Position numbers and translations under genes: made by a program
Shown: in pieces, positions 1-18,977 of the stretch
Position numbering within the stretch: position 1 is the stretch's first letter
Layout: every line of letters starts with the position of its first letter
Notes under the pieces: generated by a model
Told to the model about the DNA's origin: nothing
Seen by the model: the letters and a program-made list of their open reading frames with translations, nothing else
Database searches by the model: none
Assembly: GCA_039714975.1 (NCBI GenBank)
Contig: JBDLIH010000007.1
Coordinates: 4,199 to 68,198, forward strand
Direction: 5' to 3'
Origin: Pseudomonadota bacterium
Lineage (GTDB): Bacteria > Pseudomonadota > Gammaproteobacteria > UBA9214
Length of the DNA: 64,000 nucleotides

Positions 1-382
1 CGTTTTTTACCGGAGCACGGGGGGGTTTATGTTTCATTCCTGACTCGAAACCACCGCCCTGTATAACAAAGTCAGGTATCACACGATGGAAAATGGTGTT
101 GTCGTAGAAACCATCGTCGACATAGGTCAGAAAATTTGCCACTGTTTTTGGTGCTTTTTCCGGATAGAGTTCCAGGGTAAAAGATCCCATGCTGGTCTCG
201 AAGACCACTTCTGTCCGTGACTCCTCAGACTGTGGATTTTCTGCATTGACGCCGGCAACATAGATTCCCAGCACAGTGAGTATGAATAAAATAAAGTATG
301 AGAGTTGTTTGATTTTCATGGATTATGATGGTTGTTTGATTATTTTATGGATAAGGAACAACAGATATATTCGTAGCCAGAT

Positions 383-1732
383 CTACCTGGCTGCCACCTT
401 AACAGACACCGTTTGCTTCTTGCCCGACTTGAAGGTCAGCGTCATATCGACCTCCTGCCCTGTACTCAGGTGTTCCTTCGGCCGCATCATCATCAAATGC
501 TTGCCCCCGGGCTCGAACTGGATTTGACCGTTCGCAGTAATCACCATGTCTGTCACTTCACGCATTTCCATAAAGCCATCGACCCTGGCCATTTCATGTA
601 CTTCGATAGTTTCATAAGCCTCGCTCTCCACCTTGACCAGTGTGATTTCTTCGGAGCCCGCGTTTACCAGCGTCATGTACCCGGCATTCACCGTCGCGTC
701 GGTATGCGCTTCACGAACCCATGCGTTCATGATTGCGACCACATCACCATCCAGTTTGGCCGGGCTGGTTGTGGACACTGCTTTCACGGGCGTCACAATA
801 CTATCCAGCGGTTCATCCCCCGCAATCCTTTGCGTTTCATCAGCCATGTAGTCGAGCAAGGACAATGCCTCTTCCTTGTTTAAGCGCATATTGGGCATGG
901 CCAGATTGTTGTACTGTTTGTAGAGTGCCATTGCGACAGGGTCTTTCTTCTTCAACATCTGGTCCGGCGCCTTCAGCCAGTCGAGTAGCCATTGCGGTTC
1001 ACGTTTGCGGGTAACACCCAGCAGGTCCGGCCCCAGCGCATCCGCCAGTTCATTACCGGTAATTGAATGGCATGAGGCACAGCGTGTACGAAATATTTGT
1101 TCACCCCGCGGAATACTGCGCAACTCGGGGGCATTCGCATAGTCATCACCACGCGGCGGCGCCTTCCAGCCTGACAGCCAGTTACCAACCTGATCAGCAA
1201 GCACATAGGGATTCTCGAAGGGCGAACGTTTCATCCACCGGCCGGTGGTCTGATTACCAATGATCATGTTGACATTGTGATTATTCGATCCTTCCTCCTG
1301 GATCTCCTCGATGTACAGGCCGAGCTTCCTGCGAATTTGAATAATGTCCGATTTTTTACCGGTCAAAAATGTCCAGTTGGCCTTGAATCTTTTGCGGTAC
1401 TCCTTGAAGACTTCCGGGGTGTCGTTTTCAGGATCGACTGAGATAGAGTAAAAGAAAACATCCTCGCCCACCCGGTCACCGAGGATATTTTGCACCCGGA
1501 CGAGTTGTGCCGTCTCCAGCGGACAGGTGTCCGGACAATGGGTATAGATGAAGTTGATCACGACGATCTTGTCCTTAATCAGATCATCAAAGAAATGCAC
1601 CGTTTTCCCTTCGTGGGTGACCAGCGGAACATTGGGGAAATAGTTCGCACCCCAGGGTGATGCTGAAGTGAAACCGGGGATACTACTCGTTATCAACAGG
1701 GCGAAGGCCGCCACCCAGGAATACCTATGCAT
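383..1732 (-). CDS. Three-domain copper-trafficking fusion: Sco1/SenC (thioredoxin fold) + class I cytochrome c + PCu(A)C (DUF461) copper chaperone; secreted
   Basis: N-terminal signal peptide. Sco motifs HCPDTCP (CxxxC) and DPENDTPEV. Heme c site CASCH. C-terminal PCuAC-type H/M copper motif (HEMARVDGFMEM..., GGKHLMMMRP). Confidence 0.75.
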   Translation of the reverse strand: MHRYSWVAAFALLITSSIPGFTSASPWGANYFPNVPLVTHEGKTVHFFDDLIKDKIVVINFIYTHCPDTCPLETAQLVRVQNILGDRVGEDVFFYSISVDPENDTPEVFKEYRKRFKANWTFLTGKKSDIIQIRRKLGLYIEEIQEEGSNNHNVNMIIGNQTTGRWMKRSPFENPYVLADQVGNWLSGWKAPPRGDDYANAPELRSIPRGEQIFRTRCASCHSITGNELADALGPDLLGVTRKREPQWLLDWLKAPDQMLKKKDPVAMALYKQYNNLAMPNMRLNKEEALSLLDYMADETQRIAGDEPLDSIVTPVKAVSTTSPAKLDGDVVAIMNAWVREAHTDATVNAGYMTLVNAGSEEITLVKVESEAYETIEVHEMARVDGFMEMREVTDMVITANGQIQFEPGGKHLMMMRPKEHLSTGQEVDMTLTFKSGKKQTVSVKVAAR

Positions 1733-1880
1733 AGTATTTATCTTACGAAAGTTGTTGCAATAAAAAAAGGGTTCGCGGTGAGCGTTATTCTGCTCACCGT
1801 GAACCCGGCTCTGTCAATCCAGCTGCTACAAAAACCAGGTAGCGGCTGGTACTACTCTGTTATTGACAGGACTCCCCTCC

Positions 1881-4800
1881 CTATTTACCCGCATTCCGTG
1901 CACGGTGGATAGCAGCATCCAGCGTGACCGGTGTCGGGCAGTTCACCACGTGTGGCGCGTTCGCGCTGGTGAAGTCGTAGTCATCGACTCGAACACCCGT
2001 GTTATCACCCTCTGCAACACGCGGCGGTGCCGGCCACTCAAGGATCTCCACCCTGCCGTCTTTACGCAGTTGCCTGAGCTCCTTCAACCCTTTAACTACC
2101 CGGTCGTGAGGCTCCAGCCAGTGTGCAAAGCCGATGTGCCACATCGGGCTGTAATCGTCTTCCGGCATGAAGTAGGACGGAAGACCGACCTGACTGCCGA
2201 ACGGACCACCGCCACCGTTGATACCACACCCTTCAGAGCCGCAGTTATACTCACCGCCATCTGCAGTCGCAGGTTGCGGCATTGGCGGGAAGGTTGGATC
2301 GACGTGACGTTTACCCGGCATCCACTGCACCAGCGGTACGGCCGTAGTACCGAGGAACTCATGCTTCGGCACATATGGCACACCCATGGCCCGTGCCGGA
2401 GGGAACGGGAAGGTGTCGACCACGATGTAGTATGGCAGGTAATCACCATGCTCACTAGCCCACGACTTGTGCAGCTTCAGCGTCACGTACGGAGGATTCG
2501 CATCGGTGTCCATTTCGACCACATGGCCGGAATTGTTGTAACGACCCCATGCAGTACCGTTGTAGGCACAGGTGGTGTTCGGCGGAGAATCAGGGAAGCT
2601 GTTACAGGTTCTGTCTGTCCTGTTCTGCTCCCAGTCTTCGTCACCCCATTTCATGAAGATTATGTTGAACACCACATCCTTGCCATCGATGTTCACACGA
2701 CGCAGCGGTGAGTAGGTGTTGGTGTCGCTGACATCAGGGATGTTAGCGTCGTTCAGACACGGTTCACCATTAACATCGGGATCACCTACGCGACAGGCCG
2801 GATTTGCCCAGACCGGGTTCGGCAGATCATCGTAGAAGGTCCACTCCAGCTTGTTGCCCTTGCGTTTCACACTGGCTTCAGCCGTAGCTGCCGGATTGAC
2901 ACCTGTCAGTCCACCGCCCCAGGCAATACCCAGCTCTTCCGAGAGTTCTTCATCACTGACATCGTGCATAATGAAGTAAACGTCTCTCTCATTGCCGTTG
3001 GCATCGACATGGGTGCCCTTCTCCAATTCGAAGGTTATCCCACCACGCTCGTTGTTGTCGTTCGGATCGAGCGCATCACCGATGGGTTCATCGCGGATGT
3101 TGTCGAAATGGCTGATCGTCACGCCATTCTTGATCCAGACTGACAGCGGATCCAGCTCAGGACCGAACTGACCGACATCGTCACCCTCCCTGAAGGTCGG
3201 CAGCGCAACAGAGTCGACATAGCCTACGCCATCCCAGGTCGGGAGTGGTGTCGGCATCAGCTTGACCTGTCCCGGATGCTCGATATCCCAACGCAGTAAC
3301 ATTGCGTGGTCTTCGTGCTGGGTGTTGTGGCAGTGCTCCATGTAGGTGCCTGCAAATTCCCTGAAGCGCAGTGCGATCTCAACCAGGTCGCCACTGTCGG
3401 GTTGCGGTCCCAGACGGTATACGTCCTTACGCGCCCACTGCTCATAATCAGGTGGCGCTACACCATTGCGGCGCAGGATAATACCTTCCTCGAAGTGAAT
3501 ATGAATCGGATGGCTCCAGGTGCCACTGTTGATCAGTCGCCAGACCTCCAGACCACCCGAGTTCTTGCTCGGCGCTGCTGATATACGGCGTGGATCCATG
3601 CCAAAGCCTTTACCACCATCGGTTTCGATCACCCAGGGTTTCTCGTCCGTGGGTTGTCTTTCAAATTCGAAAGAGCGATGCAGGGCGTTGGCCAGTTCCG
3701 CTTCGGTAGGCCTGTTCAGCGGAATCATCTTCTTGCCGCCGGCCACATACTCGGATGGATCCATACTGAGATCCTCGCCGTCGTATTCCGCCACGCGGAA
3801 TTCCAGGAACTTACCGACGACCGGGTCACCATTCACCCAGCAGTCACCGACAATGCCGTCTTCGTCACAGTCACCATGCTCAGCTGCGTAAACGCCACTG
3901 ACCACATCGGCCAACGGAATCGCTGCATCAGCTGTCACGCCATCCTTTTGCTGCATCAGGTTGACCATATAGAGCCTGTCGCCAGCATTAAACTGACTGA
4001 AATCTACAATGATGTCGTAACGTTCCGCGATACCCTGGGTGGGCAGCTCGCCGTTCTCGAAATAGACGCTGTGCTCCATGATGTTGCCGTCGTTGGCAAC
4101 CATGTAGAACGGTACCGGGGTACCTGTCTCGTCCACCAGTGCCAGCTTGAAGAAACGTGACACTGAACCGTTCAGGATACGGAAACGGTACTGGCGTGCA
4201 CGCACCTCCATGTAAGGCTTGTACAGCCAGTTGACGGTCATCACGTCACCAGCGAAGCCCATGAGATTGAAGGGGTTGAACCACAGCTGACCTTCATCGT
4301 CCCAGGCCTTTTCGGCAACCAGCAGGTTGACGTCGTAATCGCGGTTACCCCAGTCCAATTGTTCACCACTGGGGAAACGCAGGTTGACGCCATCATCGAT
4401 GGCTTCATTACCACGGTCAATTGCACTGTAGTAGTTCATCATGGCGGCATTGCCCTTGTAGACATTCTGCGCCGTGAAATCGAGCATATGATCATGGAAC
4501 CAGTGAGTACTCATGGTCTCACGCCAGTCACCCGGGACTTGATTGATGCCACCGGCACCATCCGGTGATCCAGCTCGAGGATCGCTGGCATCGGTGTTAA
4601 TGGTATCGCTGCCAGCCAGCGTCATCGGCCAGCGATAGTCATAGAACTGACCCGGGAAGAAGAAGCTGTTGGCATAGCCATCACTCTCGGCCGGGTTGTG
4701 TCCATTATGCTCGTGGGTAGAGATGGTGTGCACACCAAAGCCACGGTTCGCCGCCACATCGATGGGCAATGCATTGTAGTGACGGAACAGTACCGTCTCG

Positions 4801-5738
4801 CCATAACGGGCAGTGAGCAGTTTGGGCGGCAGGGTGCCGTCAAATGTCCACAGTGATTTGTGGTCCTGCACCGGCATGTCCGGATGGAACTTGATGGCGA
4901 TGCCTTCTGTCGTTCCCTCAAACCCGGGAGCGCCTACCGTGTTGTGGTAGAGCCCACCTAGACCAAATTCACCGTCATTGTAGTCGTGACCCTGCAACTG
5001 ATCACGTAAACCGCCGTTCACACGGGCGCCTGCCATCGCGCTCTGGAAATATTCTGTGGGAGTGAAATCGTCCCAGCGCTGATGCGACCAGCCCAGACCC
5101 GGCGGCCGACCTTCGGCAGGCGGATCATCCAGAGGTCTGCCGAGATAGTTTTCGATTTCCGCTGCCCAGGGATTCGTATCCTGGTCGTTGGCAAACACGG
5201 TTGGGACAGGCCAGATACTCTTGTCGAGAAAATCTTCAAGGGCCGCGCCATCCGGAGCACTCTGGGCACTCGCGGGTGCCGGTAACGACGTCCAGCCGTT
5301 TGGCTTTTTCGCGTCCAAGTCAAGTGCTTTGGTCCCGAACTCCTCGAAGCGCAAAATCTGCTGGGTAAATGCCTCGGCGCCAAACAATGGGCTGGGTGGT
5401 CCATTGCTCGGGACATTAAATACGGCCTCTTCTTCAGGCCGCTGATCTGCCGGCTGCAGCGTGTTAGACGCTTCCGCGTCTTCGGTATGGCCGGTTTCAC
5501 CGCCCTCAAAAGTACCCAGGTTCGCGTCTGGCAGGCCTTCGAGCGCACTACCATCACCATCGATCACCAGAGGAGTTAACGCTGAAGGATCTTGATTGTT
5601 GTCACCTCCGCCTCCTGGACCACCTTTGGCCGCTGCGCTGCTCGTGACGCCAAGGCACATGCTCAATAAGGCTGTCCCCAGGATTCCAGGAATGTGTGTA
5701 GTGTTACCAAAATACGGGAAATTTCTTTTTCTAGACAT
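1881..5738 (-). CDS. Giant multicopper oxidase, probable lipoprotein (~1285 aa; alternative start at 5762). CotA/bilirubin-oxidase-like core with long N- and C-terminal extensions
   Basis: All four MCO copper motifs are present in order: HTISTHEHNGH, THWFHDHM, HPIHIHFEEG, HCHNTQHEDHAM. Signal peptide with a lipobox-like LSMCLG. No Met-rich segment. About 300-aa low-complexity N-terminus and about 480-aa C-terminal extension. Confidence 0.8.
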   Translation of the reverse strand: MSRKRNFPYFGNTTHIPGILGTALLSMCLGVTSSAAAKGGPGGGGDNNQDPSALTPLVIDGDGSALEGLPDANLGTFEGGETGHTEDAEASNTLQPADQRPEEEAVFNVPSNGPPSPLFGAEAFTQQILRFEEFGTKALDLDAKKPNGWTSLPAPASAQSAPDGAALEDFLDKSIWPVPTVFANDQDTNPWAAEIENYLGRPLDDPPAEGRPPGLGWSHQRWDDFTPTEYFQSAMAGARVNGGLRDQLQGHDYNDGEFGLGGLYHNTVGAPGFEGTTEGIAIKFHPDMPVQDHKSLWTFDGTLPPKLLTARYGETVLFRHYNALPIDVAANRGFGVHTISTHEHNGHNPAESDGYANSFFFPGQFYDYRWPMTLAGSDTINTDASDPRAGSPDGAGGINQVPGDWRETMSTHWFHDHMLDFTAQNVYKGNAAMMNYYSAIDRGNEAIDDGVNLRFPSGEQLDWGNRDYDVNLLVAEKAWDDEGQLWFNPFNLMGFAGDVMTVNWLYKPYMEVRARQYRFRILNGSVSRFFKLALVDETGTPVPFYMVANDGNIMEHSVYFENGELPTQGIAERYDIIVDFSQFNAGDRLYMVNLMQQKDGVTADAAIPLADVVSGVYAAEHGDCDEDGIVGDCWVNGDPVVGKFLEFRVAEYDGEDLSMDPSEYVAGGKKMIPLNRPTEAELANALHRSFEFERQPTDEKPWVIETDGGKGFGMDPRRISAAPSKNSGGLEVWRLINSGTWSHPIHIHFEEGIILRRNGVAPPDYEQWARKDVYRLGPQPDSGDLVEIALRFREFAGTYMEHCHNTQHEDHAMLLRWDIEHPGQVKLMPTPLPTWDGVGYVDSVALPTFREGDDVGQFGPELDPLSVWIKNGVTISHFDNIRDEPIGDALDPNDNNERGGITFELEKGTHVDANGNERDVYFIMHDVSDEELSEELGIAWGGGLTGVNPAATAEASVKRKGNKLEWTFYDDLPNPVWANPACRVGDPDVNGEPCLNDANIPDVSDTNTYSPLRRVNIDGKDVVFNIIFMKWGDEDWEQNRTDRTCNSFPDSPPNTTCAYNGTAWGRYNNSGHVVEMDTDANPPYVTLKLHKSWASEHGDYLPYYIVVDTFPFPPARAMGVPYVPKHEFLGTTAVPLVQWMPGKRHVDPTFPPMPQPATADGGEYNCGSEGCGINGGGGPFGSQVGLPSYFMPEDDYSPMWHIGFAHWLEPHDRVVKGLKELRQLRKDGRVEILEWPAPPRVAEGDNTGVRVDDYDFTSANAPHVVNCPTPVTLDAAIHRARNAGK

Positions 5739-5873
5739 TGCGACCCCCCCAGGTTTTGACATGAATACACGCGCACCATTTTTTGAAGTTGCCTCATGGC
5801 CGCGATTGTTTGTTGGATTCGGGCGCTAATTTCTCACATGTAATAAATGTTGTATGTAACCCTGGATACGGGC

Positions 5874-6308: not shown

Positions 6309-6995
6309 GTGTTCAAAACCAGAACCATTGACTGGCGCCAACATTATCCACAGCTTGCGTCAATTGCAGATCCCGCCTGGATAGAGGCAATTAAGCATTT
6401 GGAGCCAATCACTGTGCCCGGCGGAACCCAGGCATATATAGCTGGTGATGAATGCCGAAACTTTCTGTTACTCCTAAAGGGCAATATTCGGGTTTATGCC
6501 TCCGGACGGGGTGGCCGTGAGATTGTCCTCTACCGTATACAGCCGGGCGAATTCTGTATTCTGTCACTCGTCTCATTCCTGCAGGGCAGCTCATTTCCTG
6601 CGAATGCGGTCACTGAAAACGAAGTGCAGGCCCTGGTCATGGACCGTAACGTCTTCATACGGGCCATGAAAAATTCACCGGCCTTGAATGACATCATGGT
6701 GATGGAACTGAGTAATCGATTTATTGAAGTCATTAACCGGGTTCAGGAGCTTGCGTTTGAACCGCTCGATATACGGATGGCCAATCTGTTATGCAGGCGG
6801 TTCCGTGAAGAACACGGGACAACGATTGAAATCACCCATAGCCAATTAGCCCAGGAACTGGGTACCACACGGGAAGTTGCAAGCCGAATGCTCAAGGACC
6901 TGGAACGCGGCAGTTACATCAGACTTTCGCGCGGTAAGGTCAGTTTGCACGACAATGAAGCAATCGGACGCATGTATCAGTTGGGAGAGCAGTAA
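6309..6995 (+). CDS. Crp/Fnr-family transcriptional regulator
   Basis: cNMP-binding-like N-terminal domain. C-terminal HTH ELAQELGTTREVASRMLKDLERGSYI. Confidence 0.8.
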   Translation: MFKTRTIDWRQHYPQLASIADPAWIEAIKHLEPITVPGGTQAYIAGDECRNFLLLLKGNIRVYASGRGGREIVLYRIQPGEFCILSLVSFLQGSSFPANAVTENEVQALVMDRNVFIRAMKNSPALNDIMVMELSNRFIEVINRVQELAFEPLDIRMANLLCRRFREEHGTTIEITHSQLAQELGTTREVASRMLKDLERGSYIRLSRGKVSLHDNEAIGRMYQLGEQ

Positions 6996-12744: not shown

Positions 12745-14139
12745 TTAGTCATCCAGTGGCAGTCCGCTCGGCACGCCGTTGACAACATCCTGGTCACTGC
12801 GAAGGTCAAGACTGGCCGGGTCCGTCAGCGCATTCAGGAAGTCGATAATGCGATCGACGTCCTCATCACTGTAGGCAAACGGGTCCAGCTCGTTGTGAGC
12901 CGCGATAAAATCAACACGATCCGGATCATCCATGGCGATATAGTTCTCCGCATCCAGGGTCGGATGGGTCGGAAGGACTGCCTGCCGGTTGCTGTTGTAG
13001 GTATAGAGTGCGTTGACCGCATCCACGTGGTGTTCGACAACTGCGCGCAGTGTATCGTAGGCACCGCCATGACCATAAGGTGCAGTCAAAGCCACATTAC
13101 GTAATGTTGGAGTGCGGAACTTGAGCGTATCTGCCGGATCTCCGGTTACCTGCTCACGACCAAAGTCTTCATGGCCACCGGTCTTGCCAGGGCTGTTACT
13201 GCCGCGGCCTGAGCCAATCTGCGGCATTGCAATAGCATGGAAAGAATTGTCGGTCTGGTACAGGCCACTGTGGCAGCTTGCACAGGCATTGCCATTACCA
13301 TCACCCTCGTAGAACAGTTCCATGCCGGCCAGGGCATTTTCACTCATGGCGCCTTCGTCGCCACGGAGCAACTGGTCGAAAGGGCTGTTATCCGCACGCC
13401 AGGTTTCACCCTCAAAAGCCGAAATGGCATTGGCGGCATGGGCATAGGTGATATCACCGGCGCTGAGTACGTCGCCGGGGAAAGCGGCTTTAAACATATC
13501 AACGTATACAGGAATGGCCTGCAGGCGTTGCGCCAGCTGCTCCCAGACACCGCCAGGATCGGCCAGGTTACCGGCACCTGCTGCATCGGCAATGGAGTTC
13601 TCACCCGGCTGACCCGCCATTTCTGTACCAGATGTCACAGGAAACATGGCCTGACATGCCAGCACGTTTTCCAGGTTGCCTGGCAGATTGTGACCAGCCG
13701 GTGTCTTGCAGCCGCTTGGGAAGCCTTCCCCACCGACGGTTGTCACACGGCCATCGTGGAACATGGTGTGGAATGAGTTGTCACCCAGATTCCATACATG
13801 CGGCGCATTGCGTGGCACACGTTCGACGACCAGATCTGCACCTGAACCCACATTACGGGTTACACCCAGACCTTTACCACCTTCACCAACGGGTAATGAA
13901 AGACCGTCACCGGTACCTGTCAAAGAGTGGTGGCAAGTACCGCAGGAAATGTTCTGATTACCACTCAGGATCTTATCGAACATCAAAACCCGACCCAATT
14001 CTACCTTTTCTGCACTCGGTGTGCGGAAGTCATAATTGGGTTCCGGCAGATCGAGACCGTTGCCCTTGGCGTTTACCGTGCCACTGATTCCCAGCATCGC
14101 GACAGCGACAGCGGCAGCAATACAGCTATTTGTTTTCAT
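12745..14139 (-). CDS. Di-heme cytochrome c peroxidase / MauG-family enzyme
   Basis: Signal peptide. Two heme c motifs, CGTCHH and CASCHSG, spaced as in the CCP/MauG family. Confidence 0.8.
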   Translation of the reverse strand: MKTNSCIAAAVAVAMLGISGTVNAKGNGLDLPEPNYDFRTPSAEKVELGRVLMFDKILSGNQNISCGTCHHSLTGTGDGLSLPVGEGGKGLGVTRNVGSGADLVVERVPRNAPHVWNLGDNSFHTMFHDGRVTTVGGEGFPSGCKTPAGHNLPGNLENVLACQAMFPVTSGTEMAGQPGENSIADAAGAGNLADPGGVWEQLAQRLQAIPVYVDMFKAAFPGDVLSAGDITYAHAANAISAFEGETWRADNSPFDQLLRGDEGAMSENALAGMELFYEGDGNGNACASCHSGLYQTDNSFHAIAMPQIGSGRGSNSPGKTGGHEDFGREQVTGDPADTLKFRTPTLRNVALTAPYGHGGAYDTLRAVVEHHVDAVNALYTYNSNRQAVLPTHPTLDAENYIAMDDPDRVDFIAAHNELDPFAYSDEDVDRIIDFLNALTDPASLDLRSDQDVVNGVPSGLPLDD

Positions 14140-14541: not shown

Positions 14542-15246
14542 TCAGGGATACTGGAACCAGGCTTCACGCTTGCTCGGAGACAGGCCATGACCGAGACCAT
14601 CCTGGCAGTGTGACACGATGCGCAGCATGAACGGACCGCCAATTCCTGCATCAGTTGGATTCACAATTGTTGTCGGAATCGGCTGAGCATTGGGGTTTTT
14701 TGTCTGCGCAAGCAAATGGTCGGCATGATCCATTCTGTTGAATGGATAGGAACCACCCAGTACCGGGAAATCCAGGCTGAGGTTTAACACACCTTCACCA
14801 TCGGAGTTGGTTGTGAAACCGTTTGGCTGTGTAGAGCTACCGGCTCCAACCCAGTCAGCGACCAACTGAGCCAGGCCACTACTGGGTGCCAGAGGTGTTG
14901 CACCACCACCGGTGATCGGGCTGCCACCGAAACTTGCGCCATGGGCAGCGCCTTTCATCCGCACCCACACGGTATACAGTGTGTTGGGCGCAGCGCCTCC
15001 CACTTCGATCTCTACCGTACTGTTTCCATTGGTCTGGCTGATCACAAGCGAAGCGGTTGCATCCTGCCAGCTGTTACCGCTCGGGTCTACCGGGCATTCT
15101 GCTTCCACAGTGTCACCACTGCCACTGGCGCTGCCTGCAGGCCGACGGCTGAAGTCATCCTTCAGGGTCGCGGCCTGGGCGATACCAGAAAGGGTAAGCC
15201 CGCTAACTAAAGCGGCGATTGCTGTTGTTAAAATGGAACGTTTCAT
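14542..15246 (-). CDS. Secreted protein of unknown function
   Basis: Signal peptide MKRSILTTAIAALVSGLTLSGIAQA. Gly/Thr/Ser-rich. No recognisable motif. Confidence 0.5.
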   Translation of the reverse strand: MKRSILTTAIAALVSGLTLSGIAQAATLKDDFSRRPAGSASGSGDTVEAECPVDPSGNSWQDATASLVISQTNGNSTVEIEVGGAAPNTLYTVWVRMKGAAHGASFGGSPITGGGATPLAPSSGLAQLVADWVGAGSSTQPNGFTTNSDGEGVLNLSLDFPVLGGSYPFNRMDHADHLLAQTKNPNAQPIPTTIVNPTDAGIGGPFMLRIVSHCQDGLGHGLSPSKREAWFQYP

Positions 15247-15404
15247 TAGAACTCCTCCCAATTATTGCTATTTAAAAGTAAGTATTACTACTTCTTGATA
15301 AAAAGACCTGTTATCGCCCTAAGGCTCCCCCCGGCCTTTAAACGTGGCCTCCGGCAGGCGATACGCCGCCCGCCGGAAGACAAGTGCTTGCTATTGCTAA
15401 CTGC

Positions 15405-17009
15405 TTACTGAATGAACGCCTCGTGAATGACCATCAGCATGCGCGGGTCGACGAAGTCATCGACGAGCACATTATTGCCATTGGCCCGGCCCAGGTAGGT
15501 CGCGATTGGCTGGGCACAACCACTGTTGTCAGCACCCGGGGCTTGGCTACCATCACATGGGGTCGTTTTGTCCCAGCTTTCGGCGAGATCGTTAAACTCA
15601 GGATTGCCATCAGCATCTTCCGGCAGGATCGAGTACTCGCCAACACCACCACCCGGAACGAAGCACGGAGCCGGCGGAACCCCACCCGTTACCGTGCAAC
15701 CCGGATTGAAGGCAGACGCTGCAATTAACAGGGTTTCCACATCACAGGCCGTGCCATCAACACCAGGACCACCGATGTTGTCACAGGCCACGGCGGACAT
15801 GCGGTTGGGACGGATACCGGCAATGACGTTCACACCCGGGTCCAGACCAATGGTGCGATCCGGTGAGTCACTGCCCAGATCGACAACCTGGACCTTCTGA
15901 CGGAACACGCCCGGGTTACAACCACCCGGTGTGCCGGGAATTTCTCCCTCGAGGCAGTCCCTGGAACGTTCCCGGTCGGTCACGTAGATGGTACCGTCTT
16001 CGTCATAGCCCCAGGCACGCAGCGAGTCGCGACGTGACGGATCATCGGCCGGTGTACCTGGACGCATGTCGATCCAGCGAGTAATGACAGCATTATTTTC
16101 AGGTTCGTCAAGCTCGAATGAATCGTCATCCTTATTGGAACCTACGCCAGCGACTTCATCAGAAAGACCGGCTTTCCAGTCAACCATGGCGATAGCTGCA
16201 CCGTGGAACATACTGACGCCCATGCCTTCCTCAGAGAATGCAAGGCCAGCCATACAGGTCCAGCGAGCATCTGCATCAGCAGGCTGGTTGTATTCGTCGA
16301 TTACATTCAGAGATTCCTGATCCAGCACCAGCACACGGCTGTTGGCAGAGCGAGCAGCTGTCTGGTACACCGGAGGGAAGAACAGGTTGGAGGCATTCGC
16401 TTGCGAGTCGTCACCGCTTGGGCTGACTGAATCCGAGTTCTGCGCATTGAAGAAGTTGGCATCGCAGATGGCCTGTACGATATTTCCGTTCGGCATCATC
16501 TGGGTACCCAGTGGACGCGGCAAGGAACCACGACCAGCAGGACCTGTGGGGTTACCCAGCAGTGGTCGGAAAGACACTGTGCGGATCGGGGTGCCATCAC
16601 GATGGAACTCGGTCAATGACTGCTGCGCCGCACTGGTGATGAAGGCGTGGCCGTTCAGACCACCGGACAGTACACCGGTGGGCTTGAAGGGACCGGGGCA
16701 TTCCTGTGAATCTGGACAAATCGGGCCACCAGCATTACCGGGATTGAACGGGTTGTTTACCGTGATACCGCGAGCACCGGTGACAATGTTAACTTCCAGC
16801 ACGTTACCTGGACCATTAGCGGCCGCCCATCTCGTTGCATCAGGGTTTGCAGGTGAAGGGCCGTTCATCGCATTAGCCATCATAAAGTTGGCCTCGAGAC
16901 AGGCCGGTGTACCGACGTCATCAAGACCATGTGCTGCTGCCGTGCCCACGGCTCCTGCAAGCAGGGCACCGCTCATTGCAGCAACGGTTTTTTTAAGTGA
17001 CATATTCAT
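15405..17009 (-). CDS. Secreted protein of unknown function (534 aa, Gly/Pro/Asn-rich, many Cys pairs)
   Basis: Signal peptide MNMSLKKTVAAMSGALLAGAVGTAAA. No recognisable catalytic motif. Confidence 0.5.
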   Translation of the reverse strand: MNMSLKKTVAAMSGALLAGAVGTAAAHGLDDVGTPACLEANFMMANAMNGPSPANPDATRWAAANGPGNVLEVNIVTGARGITVNNPFNPGNAGGPICPDSQECPGPFKPTGVLSGGLNGHAFITSAAQQSLTEFHRDGTPIRTVSFRPLLGNPTGPAGRGSLPRPLGTQMMPNGNIVQAICDANFFNAQNSDSVSPSGDDSQANASNLFFPPVYQTAARSANSRVLVLDQESLNVIDEYNQPADADARWTCMAGLAFSEEGMGVSMFHGAAIAMVDWKAGLSDEVAGVGSNKDDDSFELDEPENNAVITRWIDMRPGTPADDPSRRDSLRAWGYDEDGTIYVTDRERSRDCLEGEIPGTPGGCNPGVFRQKVQVVDLGSDSPDRTIGLDPGVNVIAGIRPNRMSAVACDNIGGPGVDGTACDVETLLIAASAFNPGCTVTGGVPPAPCFVPGGGVGEYSILPEDADGNPEFNDLAESWDKTTPCDGSQAPGADNSGCAQPIATYLGRANGNNVLVDDFVDPRMLMVIHEAFIQ

Positions 17010-17648: not shown

Positions 17649-18227
17649 GTGAATCATCTATTATGTGGGGGCGCAGTAATGATAAAAAACATGATTTGTG
17701 CAAGCCCGGCACTGAAAAGACGGATTGCCGATTCAAGAGACCGTCTTTACCGTGTCGCATTTTCCTGGTGTGGCGATGAAATGCTTGCAGATGACCTGGT
17801 TCAGGAGGCCATTGAAACAGGCATTCGTAAAAGACGACAGCTAAGGGATGAAAGCAAACTGTTTCCATGGCTGTATCGTATTCTGAACAATGCATGGTAT
17901 GCGCATCTAAGGAAGGACAGGACACATGAAATGCTGGATGACGACATGCCCACTGAGGATATCGGGCCATGCAACATTTGTCAGGAACTTGAATTAGTCA
18001 CACGGGTGCGTGCAGCAGTTGCATCACTGCCACGAGACCAGCGACAGGTAGTCTCTCTGGTCGACCTGGGCGGGTTACCATACTGTGAAGTTGCCGAGAC
18101 ACTTGAAATACCCATTGGTACGGTTATGAGCCGGTTACACCGGGCAAGAAAGGGGTTGCTGGCCAGTATGGATGGTGCTCCTGCTGAATTAATGACAACC
18201 CGGGGAAACATACGTCTAGTGGAGTAG
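17649..18227 (+). CDS. ECF (sigma-70 family) RNA polymerase sigma factor
   Basis: Region 2 (YRVAFSWCGDEMLADDLVQEA) and region 4 (LEIPIGTVMSRLHRARKGL). Start may be the internal MIKNM. Confidence 0.8.
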   Translation: MNHLLCGGAVMIKNMICASPALKRRIADSRDRLYRVAFSWCGDEMLADDLVQEAIETGIRKRRQLRDESKLFPWLYRILNNAWYAHLRKDRTHEMLDDDMPTEDIGPCNICQELELVTRVRAAVASLPRDQRQVVSLVDLGGLPYCEVAETLEIPIGTVMSRLHRARKGLLASMDGAPAELMTTRGNIRLVE

Positions 18228-18233
18228 TGTTGT

Positions 18234-18977
18234 ATGACAAAGTCTGACGATATTCTTGATGATCAGGCGCTGGGGAGTTTCACAGACGGCCTGCTCGATG
18301 CTGCCCACAGCGAAAAGATCATCAAGGCTATGGAAGACGACCCTGAGGTACGGGAGCGTGTATATCAGCTTCGCCGTGCAAAAGACCTGATGAGACTGGG
18401 ATTTGGTGACACCAGCACACCATCAGGCAACACAGCAAAAGAAAAATTCCGGAACTGGAAAATCTTTTCACCGGAAATTGCTGCATCCATTGCAGCCCTG
18501 GCGGTCGCCTTTGGCGCCGGCATGCTTGGCCATGGGTACCATGAGGGGCCAGTGAACGCTGTTGCCGGCCAGGCTGTCGCATCAAGCCGTCAGCATCAAC
18601 CGGAAAAAGTGATTCTGCACATTTCCGAGTCAGACCCTGCAAGGTTTTCCACCATACTCGAGTACACAGAAAAGTTTCTGCAGGAACATCAGGGAGAGGG
18701 AGATCAGATTGAGGTCGTCGCACACGCAGGAGGCCTTGATCTGATGCGGTCTGATGTTTCCCCGTTCAAGGAACAGATACTCGAGATGATTTCCAAATAC
18801 AAGAACGTGCATTTCTTTGGCTGCGCCAATGCCATCCGTATGTTACAAAACAATGGCATTAACCCTGCCATAATCAGTGGCATCAACACGCACGTGACCA
18901 CATTCGAGCACATCGTCAGTCGACTGCAAACAGGCGGCTGGAAGTATATAAAGGTTGATTCGATTAAGAGTATCTAA
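18234..18977 (+). CDS. Membrane anti-sigma factor with a periplasmic DsrE/DsrF-like (COG1416, sulfur-relay fold) domain
   Basis: Begins 7 bp after the sigma factor gene. N-terminal anti-sigma-like helix region. One TM segment (IAASIAALAVAFGAGMLG). C-terminal domain KVILHISESDP...IEVVAHAGGLDLM...VHFFGCANAIRML matches the DsrE-like pattern, including the conserved Cys. Confidence 0.6.
   Translation: MTKSDDILDDQALGSFTDGLLDAAHSEKIIKAMEDDPEVRERVYQLRRAKDLMRLGFGDTSTPSGNTAKEKFRNWKIFSPEIAASIAALAVAFGAGMLGHGYHEGPVNAVAGQAVASSRQHQPEKVILHISESDPARFSTILEYTEKFLQEHQGEGDQIEVVAHAGGLDLMRSDVSPFKEQILEMISKYKNVHFFGCANAIRMLQNNGINPAIISGINTHVTTFEHIVSRLQTGGWKYIKVDSIKSI

Follow-up and report, generated by a model that had tools for sequence, protein, structure and literature searches.

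The stretch of DNA analyzed here (the window, 64,000 nt) carries at 383..1732 on the minus strand a gene whose product joins a signal peptide, a Sco domain, a cytochrome c and a PCuAC domain. The gene is one uninterrupted ORF with an ATG start and a stop codon at 383-385, and it encodes a precursor of 449 aa. Upstream on the same strand lies a gene for a 1293-aa multicopper oxidase (MCO) at 1881..5762, so the giant oxidase that the first-pass annotation had placed next to the fusion gene is real. The MCO has a Sec-type signal, four copper motifs (HEHNG350, WFHDH421, HPIHIH751, and HCHNTQHEDHAM810) and a C-terminal DUF7482 region. We assigned it to the McoA type by comparison with the Pseudomonas MCOs at loci of mcoA operon order. 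Its core was 50-58% identical over 870 aa to these MCOs, which precede the orthologues of PP3183 in Pseudomonas.

The two genes are separated by a spacer of 148 nt (1733..1880, minus strand). The search for a terminator between them gave one weak hairpin with a T-run at 1850..1834, and terminator-like sites were no commoner than in shuffled sequences. The corresponding spacers in relatives ranged from -365 to +304 nt, with a median of 88. The next gene past the fusion gene (1..319, minus strand) runs off the window and encodes a signal peptide and a cyclophilin-type peptidyl-prolyl isomerase (Pfam Pro_isomerase, E 5.6e-22). In 19 related loci, too, the fusion gene was followed after 6-300 nt by a gene for a periplasmic prolyl isomerase. 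Beyond the oxidase, a divergently transcribed regulator of the Crp/Fnr family is encoded at 6309..6995 on the plus strand (Pfam cNMP_binding and HTH_Crp_2). Among the relatives, such a regulator stood near the cassette only at loci L003 and L008. No FNR/Crp box was detected in the oxidase promoter or elsewhere near the cassette, while five were found in the rest of the window, with 2.4 expected by chance. The association of this regulator with the MCO–fusion cassette is tentative. The window held no other canonical copies of Sco or PCuAC.

Domains and Metal Ligands of the Fusion Protein

The fusion protein was matched in Pfam by SCO1-SenC (PF02630) at aa 37-155 (E 5.9e-24), Cytochrom_C at aa 209-297 (E 1.3e-6), and PCuAC (PF04314) at aa 334-442 (E 1.8e-32), all three above the curated cut-offs. 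The length of the ORF and the three above-threshold domains indicated that the fusion is not a chance feature. The order Sco, cytochrome c, PCuAC in one polypeptide, as claimed in the first-pass annotation, was confirmed by these matches, by the motifs CPDTC (66-70), CASCH (218-222) and H379-X10-M390-X21-H412-X-M414, by an AlphaFold model and by Foldseek, in which each domain matched solved structures. AlphaFold, which had been suggested as a check of the domain boundaries, modeled each domain as a fold of its own (about 30-188, 208-305, and 330-447), with two linkers of pLDDT below 50 between them. The pTM of the model was 0.52 and, with both linkers disordered, no inter-domain geometry was defined. 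Therefore, site-to-site distances and intramolecular transfer paths are without structural support.

The precursor starts with a Sec-type signal peptide (aa 1-24; 1661..1732, minus strand) with a short hydrophobic core and an AXA-like site. Judged from the sequence, it is probably cleaved at TSA/SPWG (...FTSA before SPWGANYFPN), and the mature N-terminus after this site was invariant in all family members. The signal therefore points to a periplasmic protein, as had been proposed. The Sco (SCO1/SenC) domain (aa ~25-188; 1169..1660, minus strand) has the thioredoxin-like fold and the CxxxC motif with a distal His of these copper chaperones, with C66, C70, and H152 as putative ligands, and it matched 6N5U, 1WP0, 4WBJ, and 4BPY with a Foldseek probability of 1.00. 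The linker that follows (aa ~189-207; 1112..1168, minus strand) was conserved across the family in sequence and in length (22-24 aa).

The cytochrome domain (aa ~208-305; 818..1111, minus strand) belongs by fold, CxxCH motif and distal Met to the mono-heme class I cytochromes c, with C218-A-S-C221-H222 as the predicted heme-attachment site and Met279 as the distal ligand. Its fold matched 3CP5 and 2L4D, the cytochrome c of PP3183; in the latter case the identity was 57% and the rmsd 2.0 Å (residues 207-303, E 2.8e-34). The low-complexity tether to the PCuAC domain (aa ~306-329; 746..817, minus strand) is of variable length, from 16 to 51 aa in relatives. The PCuAC domain (aa ~330-449; 386..745, minus strand), a predicted Cu(I) chaperone, is a cupredoxin-like beta-barrel that matched 3ZJA (target TM 0.88), 2K6W, 9YAH, and 6P1G. 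The Cu(I) site of this family is defined as HXnMX21/22HXM (PMC13006917), and the arrangement H379-X10-M390-X21-H412-L-M414 fits it exactly.

Distribution and Variation of the Fusion Family

The first-pass annotation called the architecture unusual, proposed a search of other genomes, and named two possible objections, namely a frameshift artefact of three separate genes and a heme motif not conserved in orthologues. The Sco–cytochrome c–PCuAC architecture with conserved metal ligands was found in more than 190 database clusters and in 28 full-length genome loci, and among the matches listed (120 + 120) every one carries it. It is common in environmental Gammaproteobacteria, so the word unusual does not hold. 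The artefact was ruled out by the single ORF and by the same uninterrupted architecture in independent assemblies. Moreover, CxxCH and M279 were kept in 79 of the 80 aligned family rows, the 80th being a gap in a truncated sequence. Heme loss in some orthologues was also considered for five further database members that lacked a cytochrome call in Pfam, and it was rejected since all five retain CxxCH and the Met.

The ligands C66, C70, and H152 of the Sco domain were kept in 76-79 of 80 family sequences. Those of the PCuAC domain were retained in 32 of the 33 PCuAC-bearing members, a count that includes the window and contig-truncated sequences; at locus L028 they were lost. The PCuAC domain itself was confined to the clade in which the MCO is long (~1250 aa). 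Proteins of other lineages either ended after Sco–cytochrome c or continued there with another Sco, with the Cys-Cys motif CC(Q/M/E)K or with a tail rich in His, and Methylococcales, Pseudomonas and others have no PCuAC domain. Since it is missing in Methylococcales and Pseudomonas and its ligands are lost at L028, the PCuAC domain is dispensable in some settings. Related multi-Sco/cytochrome architectures also exist.

A family-specific PCuAC HMM, applied to 8 kb on either side of each two-domain locus, detected no stand-alone PCuAC ORF. A fusion of two formerly adjacent genes is thus unsupported, as no free-standing PCuAC gene lies beside the two-domain versions. The PCuAC domain was added at the C-terminus of a Sco–cytochrome c protein that already existed, and the earlier description of a cytochrome inserted between two chaperones has to be revised.

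Comparison With PP3183 and the mcoA Operon

The joining of Sco and cytochrome c was already known from PP3183 of Pseudomonas putida, part of which has been solved (2L4D). Banci et al. in 2011 (J Biol Inorg Chem 16:391) reportedly presented this Sco–cytochrome c fusion together with the structure of its cytochrome domain. The Pseudomonas members of the family are orthologous to PP3183, with 86-92% identity to 2L4D, and the Sco and cytochrome c region of the fusion was 58-62% identical to them. In both proteins, a single secreted chain carries Sco and then a mono-heme cytochrome c, with the same ligands, and both are encoded directly downstream of an McoA-type MCO. However, PP3183 stops after the cytochrome, whereas the fusion adds a PCuAC domain of ~120 aa on a flexible tether. 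The partner MCOs also differ at the C-terminus, with DUF7482 here and Big_9/cadherin-like domains at the Pseudomonas loci.

In Pseudomonas, the gene order is MCO, Sco–cytochrome c, GGDEF/EAL, phosphonate-binding protein and integrase, the same as in the published mcoA operon of P. putida GB-1. There, mcoA is a genetically defined Mn(II)-oxidizing MCO followed by an SCO1/SenC gene, which is called only a "predicted copper chaperone", the heme domain being unmentioned (PMC11409713). The MCO gene followed by a Sco-family gene is common to that operon and to the locus described here. Further downstream the two diverge, with GGDEF/EAL and phosphonate-binding proteins in Pseudomonas and the cyclophilin-type isomerase in the window. 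These results indicated that the Sco–cytochrome c–PCuAC fusion is a variant of a known two-domain fusion and not a new kind of system. Only the added PCuAC domain is undescribed in the literature searched.

Comparison With Other Copper Chaperones

The assembly of CuA and cbb3 canonically depends on Sco together with PCuAC (PMC6669012, PMC7558416). The pairs of Thermus thermophilus and B. diazoefficiens (CuA), R. capsulatus (SenC/PccA, cbb3) and S. lividans (Sco/ECuC) have the same domain families and ligand sets as the fusion, and the PCuAC protein of S. lividans (3ZJA) was the best structural match to its C-terminal domain. In these systems, however, the two chaperones are separate polypeptides, usually membrane-tethered and without heme, and they serve heme-copper oxidases. 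The fusion is one predicted soluble chain with a cytochrome between Sco and PCuAC, encoded beside an MCO.

Two further systems have other clients. AccA of Neisseria gonorrhoeae, a member of the PCuAC family, loads the type-1 copper of the nitrite reductase AniA (PMC13006917). It has the HXnMX21/22HXM Cu(I) site, its client is a cupredoxin-fold protein other than a cytochrome oxidase, and its structure (9YAH) matched the C-terminal domain of the fusion; unlike the fusion, AccA is a single domain with a His/Met tail and has neither Sco nor heme. CutF is needed by the MCO CutO in Rhodobacter capsulatus (PMC8456105, PMC7558416). CutF is small, periplasmic and encoded together with CutO, it has a CxxxC motif, and the MCO is inactive without it, so that a copper chaperone dedicated to an MCO is not a new concept. 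Homology between CutF and the fusion is not expected. CutO is a Tat-type, copper-detoxifying MCO, whereas the MCO described here is of the Sec type. In the literature searched, which included few subscription journals and is weak evidence on this point, there was no described Sco–cytochrome c–PCuAC protein and no Sco/PCuAC-dependent MCO maturation.

Proposed Function of the Fusion Protein

In 66 of 69 related loci, the Sco–cytochrome c gene was preceded on its own strand by an MCO gene that ended less than 400 nt away, and no different conserved partner gene was found in any of the 69. The pair occurred in Gamma- and Betaproteobacteria, Planctomycetota, Acidobacteriota, Myxococcota and Nitrospirales. 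These MCOs began with Sec or lipobox signals, and twin-arginine motifs were nearly absent, which, together with the periplasmic prolyl isomerase genes in 19 loci, suggests that folding and metallation take place after export. We lean towards the reading that the fusion acts in the periplasm as a copper-insertion (maturation) factor dedicated to the MCO encoded directly upstream. The first-pass annotation had proposed that it reduces copper and hands it to the adjacent oxidase, with Sco and PCuAC normally delivering to CuA sites. Reduction and delivery to the oxidase is the best-supported reading because of the near-universal synteny and the conserved ligands, and this part of the interpretation stands; the likely target is the adjoining McoA-type MCO instead of a CuA site.

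We infer the client as well as all steps of copper and electron flow. The MCO would be exported unfolded via Sec, and its four copper ions would have to be inserted after it has left the cytoplasm. PCuAC, on its flexible tether, would bind Cu(I) available in the periplasm at the His2Met2 site and pass it to the Cys2His site of Sco or straight to the oxidase. The c-type heme, held beside Sco by the conserved linker, may donate or accept single electrons and so keep the copper (Cu(II)/Cu(I)), perhaps along with the thiols of Sco, in a transfer-ready state, while the prolyl isomerase encoded next could aid the folding of the large oxidase. The intact conserved metal sites in all three domains were counted for copper insertion, as were the agreement of the Pseudomonas loci with the mcoA operon order and, by analogy, the precedents of AccA and CutF. 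The swapping of PCuAC, a second Sco, CC(Q/M/E)K and His-rich tails in one position fits an accessory module for copper capture, and the alternatives that fill this third position are candidate copper binders from their motifs. The intergenic spacer with its weak hairpin, the dispensability of PCuAC in some lineages, and the undefined inter-domain geometry were counted against copper insertion.

Also counted against it was a link to a cytochrome oxidase phenotype, as the PP3183 study is cited in a review among Sco deletions that lost cbb3 oxidase activity in P. putida (PMC3817396). Respiratory oxidases may therefore be clients of the family, in place of the MCO or in addition to it. In its full form, this alternative makes the fusion an assembly factor for heme-copper oxidases (CuA of the aa3 type or CuB of the cbb3 type), with the MCO adjacent by chance or by shared copper-dependent regulation. 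The canonical role of Sco and PCuAC is in its favor, and the homologues are named "cytochrome oxidase Cu insertion factor" or "copper chaperone PCu(A)C" in their sources. We consider it unlikely, however, since the conserved partner is the MCO and not a cox or cco gene, typical Sco proteins are membrane-anchored next to their oxidase whereas the fusion has a predicted cleavable signal, and PCuAC chaperones already have clients other than cytochrome oxidases.

The second proposal of the first-pass annotation, that the protein acts as redox partner of the oxidase, bears on the heme. As a partner and not a chaperone, the protein would donate electrons from the heme to the type-1 copper of the MCO, which would thereby be a cytochrome c oxidase, or remove those of the substrate, with the copper domains as extra redox centers or docking modules. 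Every family member has a c-type heme domain covalently tied to the cassette, and the multi-Sco/cytochrome relatives are compatible with such a role. But MCOs draw electrons directly from their substrate, hand them to O2, and need no protein partner. Furthermore, Cys2His in Sco and His2Met2 in PCuAC are trafficking-type ligand sets rather than the sites of electron-transfer cupredoxins, and the swappable Cys-Cys or His-rich tails resemble metal capture more than redox wiring. A redox-partner role is thus decidedly improbable. As a stable redox subunit, the protein would join the MCO through its heme to the periplasmic cytochrome pool, with the copper domains as relay or assembly sites, and this we regard as the most improbable arrangement. 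If it were true, electrons from Mn(II) or another substrate would enter the respiratory chain and allow energy conservation, or cytochrome-borne electrons would reach O2 via the MCO, which would then be an alternative terminal oxidase.

Copper insertion was also weighed against a role in thiol-disulfide exchange or in copper detoxification and buffering. The fusion would then keep oxidase cysteines such as that of the type-1 site reduced, or sequester Cu(I) for oxidation by the MCO as in CueO/PcoA-type resistance. The thioredoxin fold of Sco, with weak similarity to AhpC/TSA and Redoxin, agrees with the former, and CueO/PcoA-type MCOs do act with periplasmic copper-binding proteins in copper tolerance (PMC7558416). 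On the other hand, the copper ligand His152 was present in 79 of 80 rows, with a gap in the remaining one, as in copper-binding Sco proteins. The Pseudomonas MCO homologue is an Mn(II) oxidase and no known copper-resistance determinant, and no cop or cus genes occurred among the neighbors examined. From general redox chemistry, a high-potential c-type heme is expected to reduce disulfides poorly. Taken together, such a role is very unlikely.

Implications for Multicopper Oxidase Maturation

How large Sec-exported MCOs, such as bacterial Mn(II) oxidases, are supplied with copper in the periplasm is poorly understood. To our knowledge, few accessory factors of MCOs are known, CutF being one example. 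The fusion places both chaperone families of cytochrome oxidase assembly and a heme in one chain, locked to an McoA-type oxidase across several phyla, and can be read as a "Rosetta stone". It is an argument that MCOs, too, may be supplied by the Sco/PCuAC route, with redox control by a cytochrome as part of it. The automated names of the homologues therefore probably point to the wrong client. According to an older observation, the genes for cytochrome c maturation are said to be needed for Mn oxidation in P. putida, and the heme-bearing fusion is a candidate explanation for their role. In addition, because the third module differs between lineages (PCuAC, another Sco, a Cys-Cys motif or a His-rich tail), its role can be approached by comparing them.

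Domain organization of the fusion protein

The gene at window 383..1732 on the minus strand is a single ORF of 449 codons with an ATG start. Three Pfam domains, all scoring above the curated thresholds, were found in its product: SCO1/SenC (residues 37-155, E 5.9e-24), cytochrome c (residues 209-297, E 1.3e-6), and PCuAC (residues 334-442, E 1.8e-32). The Sco domain contains the motif C66-P-D-T-C70 together with His152, and the heme-attachment motif is C218-A-S-C-H222. The Cu(I) motif of the PCuAC domain is exact (H379-X10-M390-X21-H412-X-M414) and fits the family definition HXnMX21/22HXM (PMC13006917). By the features tested, each of the three domains has what defines its family (Sco, PCuAC, or class I cytochrome c). 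At the N-terminus (MHRYSWVAAFALLITSSIPGFTSA|SPWG…), a short hydrophobic core is followed by an AXA-like site directly preceding the mature N-terminus, which is invariant in the family. We read this segment as a cleavable Sec signal, which would make the protein soluble and periplasmic.

The AlphaFold2 model, built from an alignment of 47 sequences, had a mean pLDDT of 74.7 and a pTM of 0.52. In it, three domains (about 30-188, 208-305, and 330-447) fold independently of one another, while the segments between them (189-207 and 310-328) had a pLDDT below 50, and the Sco His-loop (141-154) was likewise disordered. The model therefore gives the domain boundaries but does not fix the inter-domain arrangement. 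In Foldseek searches against the PDB, the PCuAC domain matched ECuC of S. lividans (3ZJA, target TM 0.88) as well as 2K6W from T. thermophilus and AccA of N. gonorrhoeae (9YAH), and the Sco domain matched 6N5U, 1WP0, and 4WBJ. The cytochrome domain matched 2L4D (57% identity, rmsd 2.0 Å), which is entitled 'cytochrome c domain of pp3183 protein from Pseudomonas putida'. The ORF, the Pfam domains, the motifs, and the structural matches thus bear out the first-pass annotation of Sco, cytochrome c, and PCuAC in one polypeptide.

Distribution and conservation of the three-domain family

Searching 5.8 billion proteins gave 5104 relatives. Among these, the top 120 clusters were 72-100% identical to the query and all about 450 aa long, with the same three Pfam domains throughout, except that P0077 lacked the cytochrome call only. 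A further search, started from an Arenicella member of 52% identity, added about 70 clusters of unchanged architecture from Arenicella, Alcanivoracaceae, Wenzhouxiangellaceae, Woeseiaceae, and others. Among GTDB species representatives, the full-length protein is encoded at 28 loci, one of them in Thalassomonas sp. RHCl1, a cultured isolate. Clustering at 50% left very few clusters of the full-length form (P0191 and fragments), so the three-domain fusion is one coherent, moderately diverged family. These sequences are already public under domain-aware automated names.

C66, C70, and H152 of the Sco domain were kept in 76-79 of the 80 aligned family members. CxxCH and Met279 were kept in 79 of the 80 rows, the remaining one being a gap in a truncated sequence, and both were also present in all five database members without a precomputed cytochrome call. 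The four PCuAC ligands were kept in 32 of the 33 PCuAC-bearing members. The one deviating member (L028:7905-9269), whose MAG is labelled Verrucomicrobiales, has lost three of the four (HRQI vs HMHM) but retained the Sco and heme sites. Since both architecture and heme motif are conserved, neither a frameshift across separate genes, which the recurrence in so many clusters and loci rules out, nor a missing heme motif in orthologues undermines the fusion. The same recurrence shows that the architecture is not rare, as the word "unusual" had implied.

Relation to PP3183 and the mcoA operon

The related genome loci formed two groups: one aligned to residues 1-449 and the other only to about 1-303, i.e., Sco and cytochrome. 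The latter came from Methylococcales, Pseudomonas putida-group species, Planctomycetota, Acidobacteriota, Myxococcota, and Ramlibacter. With 86-92% identity to the solved cytochrome domain of PP3183, the two-domain proteins of Pseudomonas are its orthologues, so the Sco–cytochrome c fusion was already known and partly solved. The window protein is homologous to PP3183, and what is new in it is the added C-terminal PCuAC domain; in kind, it is unsurprising. In the searchable literature, which leaves out most subscription journals, we found neither a Sco–cytochrome c–PCuAC protein nor Sco/PCuAC-dependent maturation of a multicopper oxidase (MCO) described, which is weak evidence of absence.

The adjacent MCO (1293 aa, window 1881..5762, minus strand) contains the four canonical copper motifs, HEHNG350, WFHDH421, HPIHIH751, and HCHNTQHEDHAM810. 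Its core is similar to three-domain MCOs (e.g., bilirubin oxidase and CotA), with a long N-terminal extension and a C-terminal DUF7482 region; two DUF7482 matches lie in the last ~420 aa (residues ~870-1293; window 1881-3149, minus strand). At 66 of the 69 related loci with an upstream flank, a homologous MCO gene ends within 400 nt upstream on the same strand, and the gap to the fusion gene has a median of 88 nt across related loci. The exceptions were L036, where the flank is too short although the MCO C-terminus is still visible, L065, where the MCO lies downstream, and L006, where the MCO ORF is split. In L006 (2693-6379), the orthologue occupies at least two ORFs and the downstream fusion gene is intact; the split probably reflects a pseudogene or a frameshift in the assembly.

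In Pseudomonas sp. WOUb67 (L053), the genes for an MCO, Sco–cytochrome c, a GGDEF/EAL protein, a phosphonate-binding protein, and a phage integrase follow in the order of the five-gene 'mcoA operon' of P. putida GB-1 (PMC11409713). In GB-1, two MCOs have been genetically defined as Mn(II)-oxidizing, and McoA is one of them; between species only mcoA and the SCO1/SenC gene of this operon are conserved (PMC11409713). The L053 MCO (1131 aa) ends in Big_9/cadherin-like domains (L053:7200-7843), as do McoA-type enzymes of Pseudomonas, where the window MCO has DUF7482. Over the first 870 residues, the window and Pseudomonas MCOs are 50-58% identical. The window cassette is thus a relative of mcoA and PP3183; Mn(II) oxidation itself is known, from genetics, for GB-1 McoA.

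Origin and variation of the third module

A neighbour-joining tree of the shared Sco and cytochrome region, calculated without support values, split the family into two clades. Every PCuAC-bearing member fell in clade A, whose partner MCOs are long (~1230-1310 aa) and carry the DUF7482 tail, which is present only in this clade. Nested within it are PCuAC-less lineages (Methylococcales, one Nitrospirales MAG, and L040). The members of clade B (Pseudomonas, Planctomycetota, Acidobacteriota, Myxococcota, and Ramlibacter) have shorter partner MCOs and never PCuAC. On this unsupported tree, the simplest reading would be that PCuAC was gained once, at the base of clade A, and later lost a few times. 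With a family-specific HMM, no PCuAC gene standing on its own was found in the ±8 kb around any of the two-domain loci, so the triple fusion is more than the joining of two neighbours.

The region after the cytochrome varies by lineage. In Planctomycetota (L043-L046, L052, L064, L065, L070, L073, L075, and L078), a conserved CC(Q/M/E)K motif is followed by a C-terminal hydrophobic anchor. In others (L054, L067; L068; P0194, P0224, P0239, P0246, P0264), we found His-rich tails in some Acidobacteriota and Myxococcota, a DUF3347-like, Cys-containing domain in one Kofleriaceae member, and, in other clusters, a second Sco domain (Sco–cyt c–Sco) or the order Sco–Sco–cyt c–periplasmic binding protein. 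These variants appear undescribed and look like additional metal-binding elements.

The cytochrome-to-PCuAC linker is of low complexity and varies in length between 16 and 51 aa, which is what a flexible tether would show. The Sco-to-cytochrome linker has a constant length of 22-24 aa and a conserved sequence. Its segment at residues 189-207 (window 1112-1168, minus strand), though below 50 in pLDDT, is conserved (…GWKAPPKGDDYANAPELRNI) and may be an interaction surface rather than a passive spacer.

Proposed function in oxidase metallation

The N-termini of the window MCO (5620-5762, minus strand) and of nearly all orthologues (L003-L078) are of the Sec or lipobox type (e.g., LTACGG, LASCGG) without a twin-arginine consensus, whereas classical bacterial MCOs such as CueO are exported by the Tat route. 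This makes it probable that the oxidase is exported in an unfolded state and is folded and metallated in the periplasm. The next gene 3' of the fusion gene (window 319..1, minus strand, running off the edge) encodes a cyclophilin-type prolyl isomerase (Pfam E 5.6e-22) with a signal peptide. In 19 related loci (L002-L006, L008, L011-L017, L021, L026, L027, L034, L039, and L071), a homologue likewise comes directly after the fusion gene, which suggests a three-gene cassette of oxidase, copper chaperone, and foldase.

We favour, by a modest margin over even chances, a factor dedicated to inserting copper into the adjacent oxidase. In favour of this are the near-universal synteny, conserved ligand sets of the trafficking type, capture modules that are interchangeable, and the Sec-type signals. 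PCuAC, on its tether, would scavenge Cu(I), the Sco domain would receive it or work in parallel, the heme would give one-electron redox control of the copper or thiol state, and the prolyl isomerase would assist folding. Cytochrome c maturation genes are reportedly involved in Mn oxidation in P. putida GB-1, a role that copper insertion of this kind, if true, would explain. AccA, a PCuAC-family protein that loads the type-1 Cu of nitrite reductase, is a precedent for a client beyond CuA (PMC13006917), and CutF, required for the MCO CutO, is one for an MCO accessory protein (PMC7558416).

The automated names suggest instead a cytochrome oxidase (COX) assembly factor. In a review, the PP3183 paper is cited in connection with a COX phenotype (PMC3817396), so a dual role is possible, but the gene context argues against COX assembly as the primary role; we consider it unlikely, and the annotated client is probably wrong. 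That the fusion protein is a true redox partner of the MCO is slightly less likely again, as enzymology and ligand types argue against it, and a thiol-disulfide oxidoreductase or copper-buffering role is the least likely of the three. The remaining probability belongs to combinations of these readings and to others outside them. The fusion protein offers a clear, testable lead on the periplasmic metallation of Mn-oxidase-type MCOs.

Other features of the locus

No second Sco or PCuAC gene was found in the 64-kb window. At L018:3-353, some 3.7 kb upstream of the MCO, the end of a second ORF gives a strong PCuAC match (184 bits) and may belong to a second copy of the fusion gene or cassette. A divergently transcribed Crp/Fnr-family regulator gene lies upstream of the window cassette; it is conserved near the cassette only in two close relatives, and no FNR-type box was found near the cassette. 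The 148-nt oxidase–fusion spacer contains a 5-bp GC-containing hairpin followed by a T-run (window 1834-1850, minus strand), which could attenuate read-through and set the stoichiometry; terminator-like matches were no more frequent than in shuffled sequence. Farther along the window lie, in this order, a gene of the di-haem cytochrome c peroxidase/MauG family (12745-14139, minus strand), two ORFs that look secreted and have no Pfam match (14542-15261 and 15405-17009), and genes for an ECF sigma factor and a probable anti-sigma factor (17649-18977, plus strand).
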